The notes under the pieces are model-generated. The model had not been told where the DNA came from. It was given only the letters and a program-made list of their open reading frames with translations, and did no database searches. A stretch of 64,000 nucleotides of DNA from Escherichia phage a20: sequence record OQ067374.1; one strand, given 5' to 3'. This document shows, one piece after another, positions 2,981 to 18,666 of the stretch. Both the position numbers and the translations under genes were made by a program. Every line of letters starts with the position of its first letter. Position 1 is the stretch's first letter.

Positions 2981-3277
2981 TTACATAAGAAGCAAACGTT
3001 CTACCGGAGTACCATCAACCGAAATTACTTTATCAAGGCGGAAAGAACGCCACTGACCTAACTCGGTATCGAATGCTCGAACTGATTCACGAGGTTCAGA
3101 ACGAACTTCTGTTGATGGGTTACTATTTTCATATTTGACTTCAAGTTCATCGCGGGAGGCAAACATCGTACGAACATCACCGTTAGCCTTTTCAAACACA
3201 ACACAATGAACGCCTACAGACAGAATAGTTTTAATACGTTCACGAAGAACCATAGTTTCTTGTTCAGTTAAAATCAT
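2981..3277 (-). CDS. hypothetical protein (31.1/31.2 position); ATG start at 3277
   Basis: track ORF begins at GTG; ATG 3 nt after cd stop (TAATATG). Confidence 0.5.
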   Translation of the reverse strand: MILTEQETMVLRERIKTILSVGVHCVVFEKANGDVRTMFASRDELEVKYENSNPSTEVRSEPRESVRAFDTELGQWRSFRLDKVISVDGTPVERLLLM

Positions 3278-3278
3278 A

Positions 3279-3860
3279 TTATTCACCACAAAAGTTTCGA
3301 ATTTGTTCCCAATTCAGAGAACGAAGATTATTACGAGAGTACTGAATTACTTCAATACCGGCTTGTTTTAGAATGTCTGCCCAATTTTCAGGAGATCGGT
3401 CATATAATTCTGCATATACAACCTTTTTAATACCTGACTGTGTAATAGCTTTAGTGCAATCAGGGCACGGAGAAAGCGTAGTATATAACGTAGCACCTTC
3501 AATAGAATTACCTTTACGAGCTGCAAACAAAATTGCATTCAATTCCGCATGGATTTCGTTATTAGCAGACCATGCACTATGAGCGGCCCGATGTTCTTTA
3601 GCCAAAACAAAATTATCCACCCGTCCAAATGCTGTAGTGCCTTCTTTATGCCCAGCAACGATGACCGGGCTTGGTTTATTCTTCAACCAACCGTTTTCGG
3701 ATGCATGTTCGCAACAGTTTGTACCACCTGAAGGAGAGCCATTATAACCTGTAGAAATAATGCGCCCATCTTTTTCAATGACGGCACCAACTTTCCATGA
3801 ACAACATTTTGATTCTTGAGAAATCAGATATGCAATCTGAAGGTATGTGCTAGCTTTCAT
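3279..3860 (-). CDS. cd: dCMP deaminase
   Basis: 193 aa; zinc-deaminase motifs (CAE, PCxxC) and match to T4 Cd. Confidence 0.9.
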   Translation of the reverse strand: MKASTYLQIAYLISQESKCCSWKVGAVIEKDGRIISTGYNGSPSGGTNCCEHASENGWLKNKPSPVIVAGHKEGTTAFGRVDNFVLAKEHRAAHSAWSANNEIHAELNAILFAARKGNSIEGATLYTTLSPCPDCTKAITQSGIKKVVYAELYDRSPENWADILKQAGIEVIQYSRNNLRSLNWEQIRNFCGE

Positions 3861-4852
3861 TATTGAACCTTATTAATATGAGTTAACAGCTCTTTAGTTT
3901 GTTCCCAACTGATGCACGCATCGGTAACGGAAACGCCATAGGACATATTATCAGAAATTTTTTGATTTCCTTCATGTAGGAATGATTCTATCATAATTCC
4001 TTTGACCAAATCATTAGCTGCTAAATTTTTACCAATACCAATTTGATTGCTATAATGCCCAGCAGCGTTTGCATGGCTACAGTCAACCATTACATAATGA
4101 TTCAGACCTACTGCACTTGCTTTGTTAGAAGCTTCTTGAATATCAGAAGAATGATAGTTCGGGCCGTTGGTCCCGCCACGCAATACGATATGCGTATTCT
4201 GATTACCTTCAGCTTCAACAATGCCTACAGTACCATCGACGTCCATACCCATATACCGATGAGGCCAGGCGGCACTATACATCGCGTCTGTAGCTACTTT
4301 AATAGAACCATTGGTTGCGTTCTTGAAGCCTACGCACATCGGTAGACCTGAAGCAATTTCACGATGTGTCTGACTTTCAGTCGTACGGGCGCCAATAGCA
4401 ACCCATGAGAAAATACCAGAAAGATACTTAATCGTGAATGGGTCTAATACTTCAGTTGCTAATGGAAGTCCCATACGTAGAAGTTTACGACACAATGTTC
4501 GTGCAACTATAAGACCGTGGTTCATATCAAAACTTCCGTCAAGATATGGATCATTTACAAGACCTTTCCAACCTACGGTAGTTCGAGGCTTTTCAAAATA
4601 AACGCGCATCACTAACAGAACATTAGGAAGACGAGTTTGAAGTTCAGCCAAACGTTTGCCGTATTCAACAGCAGCAATAGGGTCATGAATTGAACAAGGA
4701 CCTACAACAATAAGTTTGCGTGGGTCTTCACCGTTCATAATCGAATTAACTTGTTCGCGATGAGAAGCCACTTGTGATGCGTAAGCTTCCGACAAAGGAA
4801 TAATCTCAGCCAGTTCTTTTGGAGAAATAAGTTTTCCGACGACAGGTAACAT
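3860..4852 (-). CDS. class-I DAHP synthase (AroG/AroF/AroH-like)
   Basis: 330 aa; KLIVVGPCSIHDP, KPRTTVGWKGL, GARTTESQ motifs; SD AAGGA; stop overlaps cd start (TAATG). Confidence 0.85.
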   Translation of the reverse strand: MLPVVGKLISPKELAEIIPLSEAYASQVASHREQVNSIMNGEDPRKLIVVGPCSIHDPIAAVEYGKRLAELQTRLPNVLLVMRVYFEKPRTTVGWKGLVNDPYLDGSFDMNHGLIVARTLCRKLLRMGLPLATEVLDPFTIKYLSGIFSWVAIGARTTESQTHREIASGLPMCVGFKNATNGSIKVATDAMYSAAWPHRYMGMDVDGTVGIVEAEGNQNTHIVLRGGTNGPNYHSSDIQEASNKASAVGLNHYVMVDCSHANAAGHYSNQIGIGKNLAANDLVKGIMIESFLHEGNQKISDNMSYGVSVTDACISWEQTKELLTHINKVQ

Positions 4853-4972
4853 AACAATCCTTAGGAGATATAAACAGATTCTGATTCAACAATACCTTTA
4901 ACCGGATTAGACAGGCTAAGTTGGTAGTGCTCAGATTTATGACCATTCTCGATAGTAATTAGATAGCTCTCA

Positions 4973-5209
4973 TTATAGTGTTCCATATACTCGAGTTGCT
5001 TCAACTAAACCGTCACTGCCTAATTTAAGGCTAGTAATCTGGTCACCATCTTTAGGATTAACGATTATGAGAAAAGAACGTGGAGATTCTTGAATAACTC
5101 GTAATGTTGCATCCTGGAAACGTTCAGACACTTTATTGATGAGTGCTTGAGCAAATTCTTTTACTTTAATCTGAAATTCGTGTACTGTAATTGGGTTTTC
5201 ACTTAGCAT
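4973..5209 (-). CDS. hypothetical protein (cd.x region)
   Basis: 78-aa ORF with own promoter. Confidence 0.5.
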   Translation of the reverse strand: MLSENPITVHEFQIKVKEFAQALINKVSERFQDATLRVIQESPRSFLIIVNPKDGDQITSLKLGSDGLVEATRVYGTL

Positions 5210-5235
5210 TTCGATTTCCTCATTGTGTTGGTAGA

Positions 5236-5270
5236 GTCATAGTATCACAACTCTACCATGTTGTAAACCA
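5236..5270 (-). promoter_or_regulatory. early promoter, PeSL-like
   Basis: GTTTAC ... GATACTATG with inverted repeat GGTAGAGT/ACTCTACC. Confidence 0.5.
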
Positions 5271-5546
5271 TTAAATTGCTTTGCATTCAATTTTTTGTGT
5301 ACCGAAATTGATATCACATTGGATAACTAAATCGCCGTCAAGATCAAATACCACGATGACGTGTGCAGACCCAGGGAGAAGAGTAATAGCAATAGAATCT
5401 ACTTGGTCTGGGAGCAAAGCATTGAGTACATGAGTTACTTGAGCATGAACTCTGAGTTCGGCTGCATTATCAAGCACTTCAAACATATTATTAGCAATAA
5501 TCTGACTGAAGACTACCTTTACAATTTCAGAATAAGTTGGGAACAT
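5271..5546 (-). CDS. hypothetical protein; start moved to ATG 5546
   Basis: ATG start avoids overlap with upstream ORF. Confidence 0.45.
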   Translation of the reverse strand: MFPTYSEIVKVVFSQIIANNMFEVLDNAAELRVHAQVTHVLNALLPDQVDSIAITLLPGSAHVIVVFDLDGDLVIQCDINFGTQKIECKAI

Positions 5547-5553
5547 AATTACC

Positions 5554-5778
5554 TCAGTGTACAGTGTGCACTTTAACTCGAACAACAAATCGCTCGGTTG
5601 GTTCACCTACAGGAACAAACTCTACATGATATTCACCTTTGTAACGAGTATTCAGATCATTACGAATTCCTGCGAGTTTGTTGATTAATGTAGGACTCAT
5701 ATTAAGTCCCACTAGTTTACGAAGCATTTTGTATGCTTCATCTTCGATTTCATGATGTTTATCATACATAGTTTTCAT
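5554..5778 (-). CDS. hypothetical protein (cd.x region)
   Basis: 74-aa ORF, ATG start. Confidence 0.5.
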   Translation of the reverse strand: MKTMYDKHHEIEDEAYKMLRKLVGLNMSPTLINKLAGIRNDLNTRYKGEYHVEFVPVGEPTERFVVRVKVHTVH

Positions 5779-10393: not shown

Positions 10394-10401
10394 AATAAAG
10401 T

Positions 10402-10415
10402 GGGACCGAAGTCCC
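10402..10415 (-). other. UUCG-tetraloop hairpin 8 nt upstream of denA start
   Basis: gggaccgaagtccc between nrdB stop and denA ATG. Confidence 0.45.
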
Positions 10416-10419
10416 GTCC

Positions 10420-10922
10420 TTAGAAATATTTTTTGTATGAATTGATTACATTTTGGTCTACATCATTATCAATTTGTGCGACAAGATAAGAACTGATTTC
10501 AACTTCCTGAGGAGCGGCTTGAACTAAATCAGAGTTCAGATATTCACGAATCCAAGGATACGGATGCTTGGTCGGAGCATCAGTGATTGGGCATGGCAAA
10601 CCACACTGTTTCATACGAGACACAGTCAAGTAATCAACAAAAGCACACATACTCTGCGTATTGATACCTGGACATGTACCGTCTTTAAAGAGGTGTGCAG
10701 CCCATTCCTTCTCTTGACTATTTACTTCCATAAAAATGTCAACTGCTTCTTGTTCACATTCTTTAGCAATTTGAACCCACTCATCACCATCAGTACCAGA
10801 TTGAAGTTGACGGATAATGTACTGAGTACCCTTGAGGTGGAGTTGTTCGTCACGAGCAATGAACTTCATAATCTTTGCATTACCTTCCATAATTTCCATA
10901 TTTTTATGGAAGTTAAAGGTAC
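10420..10922 (-). CDS. nrdB: ribonucleotide reductase beta subunit, exon 2
   Basis: C-terminal NrdB sequence; junction reconstructs FYVSFA-C-TFNF matching E. coli FYVSFACSFAF; spliced CDS 392 aa. Confidence 0.75.
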
Positions 10923-12012
10923 CGTATGTTCGATTGAGCTCGCTAATTCTCAACCCGTTCTCTTATGAACTGCTGCATGTTACCATGCAGTCCAGACTAT
11001 ATCACAATCCCGGAGGGATTCTCCCCATTTCGAGTCGCTTGACCCTACGTCCGAAGACTAGTCGTTGAACCTTGTTTTGCAATTGTCGCCGTGCCATCGT
11101 TTATATGTTGATGGTGATAAATCTTTCTTATCACAATATGGACAATTCAATTGAATTCTATTTGGATTTAATTTACATCTGTCATTATGTTTTAGATAAA
11201 ATCCAGGACCTTTACCAATGTGACCACAAAAATCACATGTGATTTCTTTTTGTGCAGGATGGGTCCCGTTCTTAACCATTTCTAATGTTTTTGCTGATGT
11301 TCTTTTCTTATGGTCTTCTGATAAGAAATGATGTGAACCGTCATTTACCCGTTTTGATTGAGTTTCTGACTGCATTTTACCACCGCAAAATACATGAGTA
11401 CCTTCTTTTATAGCTGCAATATTGCGTTCTTTAACTTTTGCAATATGCTCAGCTTGTTGAAAATTATGTATACCTAATGCAACTCTATTTAAATTAGATT
11501 TACGCTGTATTTCACCATCTAAAAGATGAAATGTACCATTTTCTATCTTAGATTTAATAGAGGCAATATTTTTAGCTCGTACTTCAGGGATATTAAAAAT
11601 CTGGATTTCTCTAGATTTTGCGGCTTTAGAAGCTAATTCAGAAATTTCTTCAGGAGAATATTTCATTCTAAGCTTTATAGCATGACAAGCCTGGTAATCT
11701 TTTTGAGCTAAATGTATATCATAATGTTCCTGTATAGAAAGGCACATCAAATTATCTAAATCATTATTTTCACGGTTACCGTCTTTATGATGGATTTCGT
11801 ATGTTCTTCCATCAGAATCTTTAGGTATAGGTCCGTTAGCATCTATCCAAATTTTTCTATAGTTCAATTGTGCATCCTCTTAAAAGTATAATCATATTTA
11901 TATTATACTAATTAAAGGTGCAAGCAAAACCTTGGCTGCTAGTTTTCCTATAAAGGACTTTCCAGCAATTAAAGGAGTTTTCGATAAACGTTACCGTTTA
12001 AAGGCGCATTTT
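10923..12012 (-). mobile_element. group I intron in nrdB (1090 nt) carrying I-TevIII
   Basis: exon 1 ends on U, intron ends on G; boundaries set by frame restoration and conserved Cys. Confidence 0.7.
11058..11867 (-). CDS. I-TevIII: intron-encoded HNH homing endonuclease I-TevIII, full length
   Basis: 269 aa with Cys-rich zinc-finger C-terminus; TTG start after AAGAGGA SD; late-promoter-like TATAAATA at 11887..11894. Confidence 0.7.
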   Translation of the reverse strand: MNYRKIWIDANGPIPKDSDGRTYEIHHKDGNRENNDLDNLMCLSIQEHYDIHLAQKDYQACHAIKLRMKYSPEEISELASKAAKSREIQIFNIPEVRAKNIASIKSKIENGTFHLLDGEIQRKSNLNRVALGIHNFQQAEHIAKVKERNIAAIKEGTHVFCGGKMQSETQSKRVNDGSHHFLSEDHKKRTSAKTLEMVKNGTHPAQKEITCDFCGHIGKGPGFYLKHNDRCKLNPNRIQLNCPYCDKKDLSPSTYKRWHGDNCKTRFND

Positions 12013-12688
12013 ACGCAAAAGATACATAAAAACGAATAGCTTCTAAGGCATTAATAACGTGCAAACAGAGGTAAAGAGATTTCATTAAAGCACGTTTAGC
12101 TTCGGCTTCTTGTTTAATAGCTCGGTTTAAACGAAAGTCGGCATCAGGAGATTCTTTAGCTAATTCTACAAATTCTTTAGCATTTTCCCAATAACGAGTT
12201 TTAACCAGAACATCATCGTAATAGCGACCAATAGATTCAGCTCGTTTCATGATTGCTTCGTCTAATACAATCTCATCAAATACCTTAGATGGGTCCGTAT
12301 AAAGATTTCGCATAATATGAGTATACGAACGAGAGTGAATAGTTTCACTGAATGTCCATGTTGCAACCCACGTATCTAATGAAGGGTCGGAAATCAGTGC
12401 CATAAGTACCGCAGATGGGGCCCTGCCTTGGATAGAATCTAATAATGATTGATACTTAAGATTGTTTGTAAAGATGTCCTGTTGGAACTGAGGAAGCTTA
12501 TTGAACTGCGCAGAGTCCAACATCAAGTTTACCTCTTCTGGGCGCCAGAAAAACGACAATTGCTTTTCAATAAGTTCTTCAAAAACTTTATGTCGCTGAA
12601 TATCATAACGTGCGAGGCCAAGACCAGAACCAAAGAACATTGGTTCATTCAAAACATCGACTTGTTGTGTGTTAAAAACTGTACTCAT
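12013..12688 (-). CDS. nrdB: ribonucleotide reductase beta subunit, exon 1
   Basis: 225 codons of NrdB N-terminus ending ...RFYVSFA. Confidence 0.8.
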
Positions 12689-12727
12689 TATATTTTCTCA
12701 CTTAGTTATTAACTCATCCATGAGTAA

Positions 12728-12750: not shown

Positions 12751-15008
12751 TTACAAGCAGAACAATCTTCAGCTTTAGGTGTTTCTAATTCATAGTCATC
12801 TGTACCTGACCCATCACGAGTGTTATGATAGTAGAGGTTTTTTCCGCCAAAGTACCAGAAGTAAAGCAGATCGTCAAGCATTACTGACATTGGCACTTTA
12901 CCTTTCTCAAATACTGCAGGGTCATAGTAAGTATTAGCAGAAGCAGATTGGCACACCCATTTCAACATGATAGCAACTTGGGTCAAATAAGGTTTATTAC
13001 CTTTCTTAGCAAGTTTCCACGCATAATCGTAAAGACTCATGTTATGTTCGATATTAGGAACAACCTGACGGAAGTTGCCTTCTTTAGATTCTTTAATACT
13101 TACTGGACCACGTGGGGGCTCAATCCCGTTTGTAGAGTTTGATACTTGACTGCTTGACTCACAAGGCATGAGTGCAGACAACGTTGAGTTACGAATTCCA
13201 TGTTCTTTGAGTTCAGCTCGAAGTTCTTCCCAGTCACATACGTAGTTCGGGGCTGCGATTTGGTCAATCTTTTTATTGTACCAGTCGATAGGTAATTCGC
13301 CTCTAGACCATTTAGTGTCTGAATAATACTCGCAACATCCTTTTTCTTTGGCGAGTTTGATTGATGCTTTGATAAGGCCATATTGCAATCTCTCAAACAA
13401 TTCATGAGTCAAATCGTTAGCGTCTTCATATGAAGCAAAGTTAGAAGCTAACCATGCAGCATAGTTCGTAACACCAACACCAAGATTACGACGCTTTTTA
13501 GCTTTTAAAGCTTCTGGAACCGGATAATCCTGATAGTCTAACAGGTTATCAAGTGCACGTACTTGTACTTCAGCAAGTTCATTAATTTTATCTTGGTCTT
13601 GCCAATCAAATTTATCCAATACAAAAGCAGATAATGTGCATAAACCAATTTCAGCATCAGGACCATTCACATCATTAGTTGGAATAGCGATTTCACAACA
13701 TAAGTTACTCTGACGAATTGGAGCTTTTTCACGAATAAACGGAGTGTAGTTATTCGTGTTATCAACAAACTGTGGATAAATTCGAGCAGTACCAGAACGT
13801 TCAGTCATGAACAATTCAAAGAGTTCTAGTGCTTTGATTCTTTTCTTTCTGATTGTTGGGTCTTTTTCAGCTTTCTCATAAAGCTCACGGAATTTATCTT
13901 GATCTTCAAAGAATGAGTAATATAGTTCGCCTGACATTTCGTGAGGGCTAAATAAAGTAATATAATCATTTTTACCAAGGCGTTCCATCATAAGGTCATT
14001 AATCTGAATTCCGTAGTCCATATGTCGAATACGGTTTTCATCCACGCCTTTGTTATTTTTCAGAACTAATAGGTTCTCTACTTCTAAGTGCCACATCGGA
14101 TAATACGCTGTAGCAGCACCACCACGAATACCACCTTGAGAACAAGATTTTACTGCAGTTTGGAAATGTTTCCAGAATGGAATAACACCCGTATGTCGAA
14201 CTTCACCCATACCGATCTTAGAACCTTCTGCACGAAGCATACCAACGTTGATACCAATACCAGCTCGTTTAGAAATATATTCAATAATTGATGCTGAAGT
14301 TTTGTTAATAGATTTTAACGAATCACCGGCTTCAATAACTACACAACTAGAGAACTGGCGAGTCGGAGTACGAGCACCTGCCATAATTGGAGTAGGCAAT
14401 GAAACTTGATGAGTAGAAACGGCGTCATAAAAACGAATAATATGTTTCAAACGGTCATGAGTTTCGTCTTGGTGTAAGGCCATGCCAATAGCCATGATAG
14501 CAAACTGTGGAGTTTCATAAATCTTCCCGGTTGTTTTATCTTTAACTAGATATTTTTCTTTAAGCTGCATAGCACCAGCATAAGTCAGGTCAAAGTCTCG
14601 TTCATGTTTAATCTGTGAATCGAGATAAATGATTTCTTCTGCTGAATATTGAGACAACAGCTCAGGGTCATATTTGCCTTCATTAACACAATAAGAAATA
14701 TGGTCGATAAAAGCAGGCGGTTCAAACTGCCCATATACATCTTTACGAAGTGCAAACATTAGCCCTTTGGCGGCGACATACTGATAATCAGGTTCTTCGA
14801 CAGAAATCGAGTTAGCTGCAACTTTAATACAAATCTTCTGGATATCTTTGGTGCTCATCCCATCGACAAGATGGGTCTTAATTTCTTCGTACAATTCATA
14901 TGGGTCAATTTGTGTTCCTTCACATTGCCAAGTTAAGACTTGAATAATTTTCTGTGCATCAAAATTTTGGGATACACCTGAATTTTTCACTACTTTAAAA
15001 TTATACAT
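12744..15008 (-). CDS. nrdA: ribonucleotide reductase alpha subunit
   Basis: 754 aa, class Ia RNR large subunit; same length as T4 NrdA. Confidence 0.92.
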   Translation of the reverse strand: MYNFKVVKNSGVSQNFDAQKIIQVLTWQCEGTQIDPYELYEEIKTHLVDGMSTKDIQKICIKVAANSISVEEPDYQYVAAKGLMFALRKDVYGQFEPPAFIDHISYCVNEGKYDPELLSQYSAEEIIYLDSQIKHERDFDLTYAGAMQLKEKYLVKDKTTGKIYETPQFAIMAIGMALHQDETHDRLKHIIRFYDAVSTHQVSLPTPIMAGARTPTRQFSSCVVIEAGDSLKSINKTSASIIEYISKRAGIGINVGMLRAEGSKIGMGEVRHTGVIPFWKHFQTAVKSCSQGGIRGGAATAYYPMWHLEVENLLVLKNNKGVDENRIRHMDYGIQINDLMMERLGKNDYITLFSPHEMSGELYYSFFEDQDKFRELYEKAEKDPTIRKKRIKALELFELFMTERSGTARIYPQFVDNTNNYTPFIREKAPIRQSNLCCEIAIPTNDVNGPDAEIGLCTLSAFVLDKFDWQDQDKINELAEVQVRALDNLLDYQDYPVPEALKAKKRRNLGVGVTNYAAWLASNFASYEDANDLTHELFERLQYGLIKASIKLAKEKGCCEYYSDTKWSRGELPIDWYNKKIDQIAAPNYVCDWEELRAELKEHGIRNSTLSALMPCESSSQVSNSTNGIEPPRGPVSIKESKEGNFRQVVPNIEHNMSLYDYAWKLAKKGNKPYLTQVAIMLKWVCQSASANTYYDPAVFEKGKVPMSVMLDDLLYFWYFGGKNLYYHNTRDGSGTDDYELETPKAEDCSACKL

Positions 15009-15636
15009 AATAATTCCATGTTGGATAATTTGATGATTTTAGACGGCGTCTAACCGTTTGGGTGCTCATAGATAAAATTATTGACGCTTCATTTAATGTA
15101 TCATATATTACGTCGTTTATAATTACTTTCTTTGCAAATGGATTCTTAGCTCCTATCATAGCATTAGAAATAGCTTGCTTAGTTGATTCTTTTAATGGGA
15201 CTCCTTTAGAAATTTTTGATTTAATTTTTATATTGTATTGTCCACGTTTTTTACCTAATAAAGAATTTCGTATCTTTTCTTTAGTCTCTTCAGATTTAAC
15301 ATGTCCTAGTTTGGAACGAGATATTTTATCTTTTGTTTTTTGGTCTAATTTTCGCCCTTTAAGCAAATCAACCATTTTTGCTCTAGTCCATCCAAATTCT
15401 TTATTATTTCTAGAACTCATTAAATTAACCGCGGTTGCTAAACCTAAATTGTTCGGATATATTTTTAATAAAAGAAGATGAGCCAAATAATGTTCTGAAT
15501 ATGTTAATTTAACTAGATTGTATGACTCATTGGTGCCACCTAAACATTTTGGGATTATATGATGCCATTCACCATCTATATCTTCAAAATTTCTTTCTTT
15601 ATTTACCAAGTTTTTATATATTTTTAAATAATCCAT
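15001..15636 (-). CDS. free-standing HNH homing endonuclease (Mob-like); start moved to ATG 15636
   Basis: HNH motif WHHIIPKCLGGTNESYNLVKLTYSEHYLAH plus NUMOD-like repeats; stop overlaps nrdA start. Confidence 0.7.
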   Translation of the reverse strand: MDYLKIYKNLVNKERNFEDIDGEWHHIIPKCLGGTNESYNLVKLTYSEHYLAHLLLLKIYPNNLGLATAVNLMSSRNNKEFGWTRAKMVDLLKGRKLDQKTKDKISRSKLGHVKSEETKEKIRNSLLGKKRGQYNIKIKSKISKGVPLKESTKQAISNAMIGAKNPFAKKVIINDVIYDTLNEASIILSMSTQTVRRRLKSSNYPTWNYYV

Positions 15637-15711: not shown

Positions 15712-15966
15712 TTAATTATCCTCAGCAATAATTTCTTTATATTCTTTAGGAGTCAAGACTGTGATATTGAAATAAACCAACGGTTCTTTTTCTATACCGA
15801 ATCCACCACAGAATTCACGATATTCATAAATTCGTTCATGTGAATAACAAATGAATCGTTCACCTTTAACTGTGATTTCACTATTCGGTGAAGGGATATC
15901 TAGTTCGGTAGGATTTTTCATTTCAAAAATTGTGGTGCCATATGAATTAATAAAACGTAAAATCAT
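15712..15966 (-). CDS. hypothetical protein (nrdA.x position)
   Basis: 84-aa ORF, ATG start right after td stop. Confidence 0.5.
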   Translation of the reverse strand: MILRFINSYGTTIFEMKNPTELDIPSPNSEITVKGERFICYSHERIYEYREFCGGFGIEKEPLVYFNITVLTPKEYKEIIAEDN

Positions 15967-16278
15967 TTATACCGCCATTTTAGCTTTGATAGTTGGATGA
16001 GATTCATAATTTTTAAGAACGAAATCAGAATGTGTCATCGTTCCAGTAACCCAGTCCATTTGGATTTTTGTAGGCCAATTCTCAAAATTACTAGGCCAAT
16101 TAATTTCAAGAGAACACAACTCTTTAGGTTCACGACGAAGAACTTCTTTGCATTGTTCTACATGATTGCTGTAGATATGCGTGTTGCCGCCTGAGAACAC
16201 TAAATCACCTGGGATAAGGTTACACATCTTCGCTACAATATGCGTCAAGGCAGCGTACGAGGCAATGTTGAACGGTAG
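15967..16278 (-). CDS. td: thymidylate synthase, exon 2
   Basis: begins LPFNIASYA...; joined with exon 1 gives 286 aa as in T4. Confidence 0.9.
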   Translation of the reverse strand, partial: LPFNIASYAALTHIVAKMCNLIPGDLVFSGGNTHIYSNHVEQCKEVLRREPKELCSLEINWPSNFENWPTKIQMDWVTGTMTHSDFVLKNYESHPTIKAKMAV

Positions 16279-17294
16279 CATTATGTTCAGATAAGGTCGT
16301 TAATCTTATCCCGGAATTATATCCAGCTGCATGTCACCATGCAGAGCAGACTATATCTCCAACTTGTTAAAGCAAGTTGTCTATCGTTTCGAGTCACTTG
16401 ACCCTACTCCCTAAAGGGATAGTCGTTAGGCATTTATGTAGAACCAATTCCACTTATCAGATTTTACACGGTAAGTAACTAATCCTGATGAAATTTCAAA
16501 ATGTCTAGCCGCATCGGCTGCACATTCAAAAATAATCCCATCGCATGAAATCTTTTTGATGTTAGCTGGCTTTTTGCCTTTCATCTTTTCAGATAGTTTA
16601 GTTTTAGTTTTTTCTGAATGTTTGTGATTAAAGAACGGGTTATTTTCACCTGAACGTTTTCGGCACTTTCCACAAGTATCGGCCGAAGATGGTATGCGAA
16701 CACCGCATTTACAAAACTTGTGGTTTTCTGGATTCCATCGGCCATTTTTACTTCCGTGTTTACCATAAAGAGCTTTCCGACCATCAGGACCAAGCTTAAG
16801 CATCTTAGCTTTAACAGTTTCAGCTCGTTTCTTAGCAATTTCTTCTTTTAATGGATGATTTGAAAGCACATCACCAAAAGACGCATCAGCAATATTATAT
16901 CCATTAATTTTAGAATTTAGCTCTTTAATCCAAAAATTTTCTCGTTCAATAATCAAATCTTTCTCATATGGAATTTCTTCCAGTACAGAGCATTCAAAAA
17001 CATTACCATGTTTATTAAAAGACCTTTGAAATTTTATAGAAGAGTGAACACCGTTTTCAAGGTCTTTAAAATGTCTCTTCCATCTTTTCTCAAAATCTTT
17101 AGCACTTCCAACATACACTTTACCGTTTAAAGTGTTTTTAATCTGATAAATTCCGCTTTTCATAAACACCTCTTTTTATATAGAAGTATTTATTAAAGGG
17201 TAGTCCTACAATTTAGCACGGGATTGTCTACTAGAGAGGTCCCCCGTTTAGATAGATTACAAGTATAAGTCACCTTATACCTAGGCCTAAATTA
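16279..17294 (-). mobile_element. group I intron in td (1016 nt) carrying I-TevI
   Basis: 5' end reads UAAUUUAGGCCUAGGUAUAAGGUGACUUAUACUUG..., 3' end ...CAUAAUG; matches T4 td intron length and remembered sequence. Confidence 0.9.
16426..17163 (-). CDS. I-TevI: intron-encoded GIY-YIG homing endonuclease I-TevI
   Basis: 245 aa from ATG 17163; MKSGIYQIKNTLNGKVYVGSAKDFEKRWKRH... near-identical to T4 I-TevI. Confidence 0.92.
   Translation of the reverse strand: MKSGIYQIKNTLNGKVYVGSAKDFEKRWKRHFKDLENGVHSSIKFQRSFNKHGNVFECSVLEEIPYEKDLIIERENFWIKELNSKINGYNIADASFGDVLSNHPLKEEIAKKRAETVKAKMLKLGPDGRKALYGKHGSKNGRWNPENHKFCKCGVRIPSSADTCGKCRKRSGENNPFFNHKHSEKTKTKLSEKMKGKKPANIKKISCDGIIFECAADAARHFEISSGLVTYRVKSDKWNWFYINA

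Positions 17295-18666
<1,372 letters not shown>

Follow-up and report, generated by a model that had tools for sequence, protein, structure and literature searches.

DAHP (3-deoxy-7-phosphoheptulonate) synthase controls the flux into the route leading to aromatic amino acids, folate, quinones and siderophores. Here we describe the DAHP synthase gene of Escherichia phage a20, located next to the cd gene in a stretch of 64,000 nucleotides (sequence record OQ067374.1, hereafter the window). Genes of this kind have been reported in phages before. According to the available excerpts of three gene-listing papers, phage DAHP synthase is an auxiliary metabolic gene whose function is not established (10.1101/2020.01.19.911818), a DAHP synthase domain is present in the genome of phage phiC120 (PMC8022965), and the DAHP synthase of the Kanagawavirus KLB31 was hypothesised in a Klebsiella phage study to supply aromatic amino acids (PMC11845039). 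These excerpts are silent on a remodelled regulatory site, on a repeat-bounded cassette and on polymorphism of the gene within a genus.

To place the locus among known phages, we compared it with 50,697 phage records by tblastn. A homologue was detected in 212 records, of which 139 were at least 95% identical to the window protein (best 99.7%), and many of them carry the labels "phospho-2-dehydro-3-deoxyheptonate aldolase", "DAHP synthetase", "AroG" or "aroF". The first 20 kb of the window are 98.4% identical to Escherichia phage NRG-P0074, a Mosigvirus, and the gene is the same as the annotated DAHP synthase, AroG or AroF of phages JS09, HX01, phiC120, the O157 typing phages and KLB31 (phrog_5045). 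The initial annotation of the window had left aside whether other T4-like genomes carry the gene under this name; many do, and it has entered the literature. Its existence is already known, being annotated, catalogued and published, and it is not a new kind of system. Beyond these annotations, we found that the genes form one syntenic phage clade, that the inhibitor site of the enzyme is rewritten in this clade, and that the gene lies in a repeat-bounded cassette in Mosigvirus.

A type I-alpha DAHP synthase in the cd region

The gene is encoded by the following open reading frame (ORF):

3860..4852, minus strand: DAHP synthase coding sequence (3-deoxy-7-phosphoheptulonate synthase, type I-alpha, 330 aa), supported by the ORF, Pfam, NCBIfam, phrog_5045, 51% identity to AroF and an AlphaFold model

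The ORF starts with ATG, and the N-terminus of its product reads MLPVVGKLISPKELAE. The initial annotation had named it a class I DAHP synthase on the strength of three motifs, KLIVVGPCSIHDP, KPRTTVGWKGL and GARTTESQ, all of which are found in the 330-aa sequence, and profile searches led to the same assignment. The protein matches Pfam DAHP_synth_1 (PF00793; E=7.4e-75, 251.8 bits against a cut-off of 25.5), the NCBIfam aroFGH equivalog TIGR00034 (427.9 bits, cut-off 173.2) and NF009395 (455.6 bits, cut-off 343), while the isozyme-specific models stayed below their cut-offs (AroH, 385 vs 463; AroG, 365 vs 568). It also matches over its full length phrog_5045, "phospho-2-dehydro-3-deoxyheptonate aldolase" (E=1.6e-181), which PHROGs places in the category "moron, auxiliary metabolic gene and host takeover". 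Identity to AroF, AroG and AroH of E. coli MG1655 is 51, 47 and 44%, respectively, and the closest solved structure by sequence is that of AroF (6AGM, E=9e-105). A 3-deoxy-D-manno-octulosonate 8-phosphate synthase (KdsA) was ruled out: the four NCBIfam matches with E<=1e-3 are all DAHP synthase models, with no KdsA model among them, and the top sequence and fold matches in the PDB are all DAHP synthases. The ORF is a bona fide type I-alpha DAHP synthase.

The active site is intact, and no catalytic residue was lost on alignment. The metal-binding tetrad is present as C53, H260, E289 and D311 (AroG C61, H268, E302 and D326) and is invariant in all phage and bacterial homologues tabulated. The residues binding phosphoenolpyruvate (PEP) and erythrose-4-phosphate (E4P) are kept as R83, K88, R90, T91, G154-A155-R156, K177 and R225; their AroG counterparts, which include the KPRT motif, are R92, K97, R99, T100, G163-A164-R165, K186 and R234. 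Across the homologues, ten catalytic positions were tabulated, and none of them varies in any of these sequences. An AlphaFold2 model made from a 40-sequence alignment (mean predicted local distance difference test score 93.5, predicted template modelling score 0.92) forms a (beta/alpha)8 barrel that retains the beta6a/beta6b hairpin (strands 198-203 and 209-214). Foldseek superposed it on AroG (1GG1, 1KFL) and on the Neisseria enzyme DAH7PS (4HSO) with a template modelling (TM) score of 0.96 and a root-mean-square deviation of 1.4 Å. The best explanation of these features is that the gene encodes a catalytically competent, metal-dependent enzyme predicted to condense PEP with E4P.

The inhibitor site in the phage clade

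In AroG, the changes P150L, S180F, L175D, F209A and F209S give feedback resistance; Q151 (AroF Q152) and S180 (AroF S181) contact the main chain of the inhibitor, and a salt bridge made by D155 stabilises the region of the inhibitor site (PMC9529685). Part of the cavity for the inhibitor is contributed by the N-terminus of the partner subunit (PMC10349828). We therefore compared, column by column, 29 members of the phage clade with 98 bacterial homologues. Clade-specific fixed differences were found at only nine columns which, in AroG numbering, are A73G, P150I, Q151K, D155G, L156I, L175I, S180P, F209Y and T223A (most bacterial homologues have Met at position 175). Six of these nine columns (P150, Q151, D155, L175, S180 and F209) fall within a set of 11 published inhibitor-site or feedback-resistance positions drawn from PMC9529685 (hypergeometric P=1.5e-8). 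In the phage protein and in 97-100% of the clade, P150, Q151, S180 and F209 have become Ile, Lys, Pro and Tyr, whereas the canonical residues are found in 92-99% of the 98 bacterial homologues. Outside these positions, the clade is about 55% identical, with 111 of 330 columns invariant. The codons concerned are the following:

4427..4432, minus strand: codons of I141-K142, for AroG P150-Q151 (from the alignment)
4412..4417, minus strand: codons of G146-I147, for AroG D155-L156 (from the alignment)
4340..4342, minus strand: codon of P171, for AroG S180 and AroF S181 (from the alignment)
4253..4255, minus strand: codon of Y200, for AroG F209 (from the alignment)

The sole clade-wide deletion removes AroG residues 2-8, which are absent from all 29 members. 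In the phage protein, 11 residues precede the column of AroG residue 20, compared with 19 in AroG, in agreement with the shortening of about eight residues noted in the initial annotation; the range is 9-13 residues in the 29 clade members and 17-54 in bacteria. The N-terminus is genuinely short, since the ORF listing contains no in-frame ATG, GTG or TTG between the start codon and the preceding stop. Residues 1-10 are coil in the AlphaFold2 model. In AroF, the N8K change and the deletion of Ile11 abolish inhibition by Tyr.

The phage DAHP synthase is probably insensitive to feedback by Phe, Tyr and Trp, a prediction made because key polar contacts of the pocket, provided in AroG, AroF and AroH by N-terminal residues, a Gln and a Ser, have been lost. 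The initial annotation had suggested a deregulated enzyme from the short N-terminus; at the level of sequence, this suggestion is now more strongly supported, as AroG residues 2-8 are missing and six inhibitor-site positions are replaced clade-wide.

We then searched for the same signature in other viruses. A scan of IMG/VR returned 80 DAHP synthase loci. The ten closest ones (58-98% identity, T4-like matches) have the full regulatory signature, and most of the other tabulated copies, largely from metagenome-assembled genomes of giant viruses, have the canonical Pro-Gln, Asp, Ser, Phe and Thr. The DAHP synthase at 3956-5005 of a giant-virus-like contig of 262 kb (L029, IMG/VR UViG_3300028829_003504) has N151, H155, P180, Y209 and S223, two of which (P180 and Y209) match the T4-like clade; it adjoins genes for a eukaryotic-type topoisomerase IB, a NUDIX protein and thymidylate kinase. 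Another contig, L030, has the same residues as L029. The unrelated Aeromonas phage HJ05 (OQ594355, 79 kb) encodes a 387-aa DAHP synthase, 38% identical, at 3899-5062 of the locus analysed (L009). It has A150, H151 and P180, lies in another context and is annotated only as "hypothetical protein". A common origin of the T4-like clade, L029 and the HJ05 gene received bootstrap values of 21-38 of 50, which do not separate shared ancestry from convergence in a grouping prone to long-branch attraction. HJ05 is the only convincing case of a separate acquisition by a phage. The contig named "Acinetobacter phage MD-2021a" (L012, CAKLQH020000056.1) looks bacterial, with cobS, cobT, cobU and other chromosomal genes alongside, and does not count as a phage source of DAHP synthase; faecal "Bacteriophage sp." contigs were not accepted as independent acquisitions because they are unannotated.

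Locus, cassette and origin of the gene

A search covering 5.8 billion proteins separated the phage proteins from the bacterial ones. Matches with 55-99% identity (319-343 aa) came from T4-like phages or from contigs, some of T4-like size, and all bacterial matches were at most about 55% identical (341-388 aa). The phage group was monophyletic in 30/30 and 47/50 neighbour-joining bootstraps; its sister group is not settled by this tree. A recent bacterial donor was rejected, since the best bacterial matches, at no more than about 55%, belong to unrelated phyla (Planctomycetota, Pontiella and gammaproteobacterial AroF). The gene has a GC content at third codon positions (GC3) of 29%, and the cosine of its codon usage is 0.935 to the other genes of the window, compared with 0.74-0.79 for host aro genes. 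Copies from Kanagawavirus, Marfavirus, Winklervirus and Bragavirus are 58-77% identical to the window protein, and the between-genus values (77, 67, 68 and 58%) track those of cd, pseT and gp31. The ratio of nonsynonymous to synonymous substitution rates (dN/dS) is 0.05-0.2 between phage lineages. Phage-like GC3 and codon usage, identities tracking those of cd, pseT and gp31, and low dN/dS together indicate, from sequence comparison, a long residence in phages under purifying selection. The clade is best explained by an ancient acquisition by T4-like phages of Enterobacterales, followed by adaptation to phage codon usage.

The position of the gene is conserved as well. In each of the five genera inspected, it follows closely on cd.2 (DUF7320) and precedes cd, the examples outside Mosigvirus being Kanagawavirus Entb_45, Marfavirus vB_Kpn_P545, Winklervirus X20 and Bragavirus PM2. 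The gene has stayed in this slot while core genes on its flanks fell to 45-65% identity. In the window, the order on the minus strand is pseT, a cd.4-like gene, an RB69ORF227c-like ORF, a cd.3-like gene, cd.2, a small ORF, the DAHP synthase gene, cd, 31.1, 31 and rIII. All genes from 5209 to 2981 are on this strand, with overlaps or gaps of at most 8 nt around the DAHP synthase gene. The features of the unit are:

5239..5267, minus strand: promoter-like sequence of sigma-70/T4-early type, TTTACA-17-TACTAT, upstream of cd.2 (consensus scan)
4973..5209, minus strand: cd.2 homologue, 78 aa, DUF7320, first gene of the unit (Pfam; 96% to RB69 Cd.2)
4861..4986, minus strand: small ORF, cd.2', 41 aa from ATG or 47 aa from a TTG at 5004 (DUF7320 positions 43-76; phrog_15876, phrog_1504)
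4858..4862, minus strand: Shine-Dalgarno sequence AAGGA, 5 nt 5' of the DAHP synthase ATG (sequence)
3858..3862, minus strand: TAATG junction of the DAHP synthase stop and the cd start, with a 1-base overlap (sequence; same as the RB69 cd.2-cd junction)
3279..3860, minus strand: cd, deoxycytidine monophosphate (dCMP) deaminase, 193 aa, directly downstream of the DAHP synthase gene (Pfam dCMP_cyt_deam_1, E=1.7e-26; NRG-P0074 annotation)

The TAA of the small ORF overlaps the Shine-Dalgarno sequence of the DAHP synthase gene (TAAGGA). Alignment identified this ORF, which has a PHROG family of its own (phrog_15876), as what is left of another, divergent cd.2 gene, namely its 3' half coding for the C-terminal half of the protein, and we named it cd.2'; it is closer to the cd.2 alleles that lie beside DAHP synthase in Kanagawavirus and Marfavirus than to the RB69/T4 type. 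The promoter-like site is annotated as T4-early-like in phage SA35RD, and in T4 the early promoter Pe133.3 sits between cd.3 and cd.2. No terminator-like site was predicted on the minus strand between 5239 and 3279. A late promoter for the DAHP synthase gene was rejected: no TATAAATA lies near it, the nearest being at 2583. Early co-transcription of the gene with cd is likely, because of the promoter homology and because neither a terminator nor a late promoter was found inside the unit.

At the downstream end, the DAHP synthase TAA (3862..3860) shares its last A with the cd ATG (3860..3858). The initial annotation had described this 1-base overlap correctly and had read it as co-translation with cd, which the overlap may allow. 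It does not tie cd to DAHP synthase specifically: the cd.2-cd junction of RB69 has the same TAATG, and the junction is therefore a property of the locus and gives no evidence for a functional link between the two genes. In Marfavirus, Winklervirus and Bragavirus, the contact is broken by one or two ORFs, one of which encodes an HNH/NUMOD3 endonuclease. Neither chorismate mutase nor shikimate kinase was found among the separating ORFs, for which Pfam returned only HNH/NUMOD3, a sub-threshold DUF6957 or nothing. No shikimate, pab or fol gene was detected among the intervening ORFs checked, and none is annotated in the inspected parts of NRG-P0074.

Several observations concern neighbouring genes. 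In the Marfavirus vB_Kpn_P545 locus, the homing-endonuclease-like HNH/NUMOD3 ORF lies at 3480-4049, which underlines the plasticity of the cd.2-cd slot. The gene 31.1 homologue of the window (2981-3289, minus strand) encodes a WYL_2 or Sm-like SH3 beta-barrel domain (E=4.5e-10); it is called "tail fiber protein" in many GenBank records, probably a propagated misannotation. The cd gene is labelled "ribD" or "tRNA-specific adenosine deaminase" in some records. The annotation of NRG-P0074 splits both nrdB and td into two pieces around homing or intron-like endonuclease ORFs, and the counterparts of the two genes in the window lie at about 10400-12700 and 15960-17840 on the minus strand. A further homing endonuclease is located, according to the NRG-P0074 annotation, between nrdA and td, at about 15000-15630.

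Within Mosigvirus, the gene is part of a cassette. RB69, the type species of the genus, has no DAHP synthase gene, and its cd.2 stop overlaps the cd start as TAATG. Aligned with RB69, the window has 1,113 extra bp exactly at the cd.2-cd junction, which contain cd.2' and the DAHP synthase gene and are bounded by a direct repeat of 14 nt (13 of 14 identical):

4964..4977, minus strand: left copy of the direct repeat, TATAATGAGAGCTA (from the alignment)
3851..3864, minus strand: right copy of the direct repeat, AATAATGAAAGCTA, with the start codon of cd inside it (from the alignment)

The cassette is present in 139 records. The uninterrupted junction was found in 11 records representing about six phages (RB69, mar005P1, JK42, JK36, moha and ECO111 5-P). 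We compared, among four Mosigvirus genomes, the divergence of positions 3881-4980 with that of the flanks (2981-3880 and 4981-5606). About 1 mismatch per 100 nt was counted in the cassette, whose synonymous divergence (dS) is 0.02-0.03; in the adjacent cd gene, dS is 0.13-0.30, and up to 38 mismatches per 100 nt are seen on the cd.3 side. As judged from this far lower divergence, the cassette has a younger common ancestor than its flanks. Either recombination spreading the cassette through the genus or a repeat-to-repeat deletion in the RB69 lineage would fit this pattern. A link of the gene to the arabinosyl-hydroxymethylcytosine modification reported for RB69-type phages was rejected, since RB69 itself lacks DAHP synthase.

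Possible roles and comparison with known systems

On balance, we find it fairly probable that the gene provides an early-expressed, probably feedback-insensitive DAHP synthase which maintains the supply of carbon to the shikimate pathway once the host has been shut off. From the promoter upstream of cd.2, transcription would run through cd.2, the remnant cd.2', DAHP synthase and cd, so that the enzyme would be made soon after infection. Phe, Tyr and Trp would lose their canonical mode of binding at the aromatic-amino-acid site, leaving the enzyme unresponsive to them. The shikimate pathway could then go on receiving PEP and E4P during the shut-off of host expression, when the host isozymes are inhibited or decaying, and those host enzymes that survive would complete the route to chorismate. 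Both the early expression and the benefit to the phage are thus part of the proposal. Several points weigh against it. The promoter was called from its match to the consensus, and matches of this kind show no enrichment over shuffled sequence. The cassette is dispensable, as RB69 and about five other Mosigvirus isolates lack it. Within Mosigvirus, dN/dS is 0.15-0.44, an imprecise estimate from four genomes with few substitutions. We found in the literature no published enzyme assay, genetics or infection phenotype for any phage DAHP synthase. An abandoned pocket might also be expected to drift, and I, K, G, I, P, Y and A, the residues found here instead, are 97-100% conserved in the clade.

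This conservation, in a clade otherwise about 55% identical, is the reason why the pocket may be locked or repurposed and not merely abandoned. It is possible, though we hold it to be doubtful, that the pocket now binds another ligand, such as chorismate or prephenate, a nucleotide, or an anionic metabolite held by the conserved Lys142. If so, the entry into the shikimate pathway could be tied to the metabolic state of the phage itself, a consequence that we regard as equally doubtful. The hairpin forming the site is kept in the model, and the change from Gln to Lys brings in a charge and does not take a side chain away. Set against this, the N-terminal arm closing off the cavity has been shortened, the sequence cannot name a ligand, and the conservation may equally reflect packing for the active conformation. 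A more daring proposal is that the rewritten pocket is either a new effector site or part of a constitutive E4P/PEP sink device, coupling shikimate entry or pentose-phosphate supply to phage nucleotide metabolism. We consider it unlikely; were it true, Pro180 and Tyr209 in the giant-virus-like contig and Pro180 in HJ05 would represent a recurrent viral solution. The plain sink alone, in which unregulated consumption of E4P (and PEP) would pull transketolase and transaldolase towards pentose phosphates for nucleotides and leave shikimate products as by-products, seems very unlikely. An enzyme free of feedback control would suit such a role, the gene lies among nucleotide-metabolism genes, and the similarly altered DAHP synthase of the giant-virus-like contig stands beside thymidylate kinase. 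The argument is purely inferential, however: a position in the hypervariable cd.x region is a weak guide to function, and the use of PEP would be costly.

The initial annotation had proposed, as a hypothesis, a supply of folate precursors. Chorismate is the precursor of p-aminobenzoate and could thereby feed folate to the reactions of the phage frd, td, cd and hydroxymethylase products, and the gene does lie in an early nucleotide-metabolism region, where frd, td, nrdAB and cd share its strand and are found within 15 kb. This role found no specific support, and we think it quite unlikely. T4 and RB69 keep cd without having DAHP synthase, and frd and td belong to the standard T4-type gene set. 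Folate is catalytic and recycled by frd, so that little net synthesis is needed; the inspected parts of NRG-P0074 have no annotated pab or fol biosynthetic gene; and the gene took over its contact with cd from the cd.2-cd junction, a contact interrupted in other genera by ORFs, including that of an HNH/NUMOD3 endonuclease. Finally, the gene might be a neutral passenger on a mobile cassette, without a role in infection. The 14-nt repeat, the Mosigviruses lacking the cassette and its low divergence relative to the flanks, consistent with recent horizontal spread, would all fit. Such a passenger would hardly show dN/dS of 0.05-0.2 between lineages, invariance of the checked catalytic residues across the clade and a slot kept while the flanking core genes fell to 45-65% identity; moreover, no endonuclease or mobility gene lies inside the Mosigvirus cassette. 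We regard this explanation as extremely unlikely.

The retention of a rewritten feedback pocket by a virulent coliphage lineage suggests that aromatic-precursor supply can limit T4-type infections. The present analysis adds to the annotations a testable prediction, namely that the enzyme is insensitive to Phe, Tyr and Trp or is differently regulated. Natural isolates differing in the cassette (RB69-type vs JS09/HX01-type Mosigviruses) could guide fitness experiments. In addition, this I-alpha enzyme, which acquired its multiple substitutions in nature and may be feedback-resistant, could serve metabolic engineering.

The locus can be compared with three known systems. With the cd.1/cd.x region of T4, it shares the slot between cd.2 and cd and the early unit (Pe133.3 in T4). 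As the initial annotation had pointed out, the gene stands where T4 has something else, namely the 112-aa Cd.1, whose function is unassigned; RB69 has nothing in this slot, and Marfavirus adds an HNH/NUMOD3 ORF. With E. coli AroF, AroG and AroH, the phage protein shares the type I-alpha family, the metal and PEP/E4P ligands and the triosephosphate isomerase (TIM) barrel with its beta6a/beta6b hairpin, and it is AroF-like in having Pro at AroG position 147 and Gly at 211. It differs from them in being 20-26 residues shorter, without AroG residues 2-8, and in carrying P150I, Q151K, D155G, S180P, F209Y and T223A. The host aro promoters are under TyrR/TrpR control, whereas the phage gene has the codon bias of the phage and is probably expressed from a phage early unit. 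The engineered feedback-resistant AroG variants (P150L, S180F, L175D, F209A/S and Q151 variants, with their AroF equivalents) are altered at the same positions as the phage enzyme. Compared with these engineered DAHP synthases, for which resistance is established where that of the phage enzyme is predicted, the phage protein changes several positions and the N-terminus together, uses other residues (Ile, Lys, Pro and Tyr) and has them fixed by natural selection across the whole clade.

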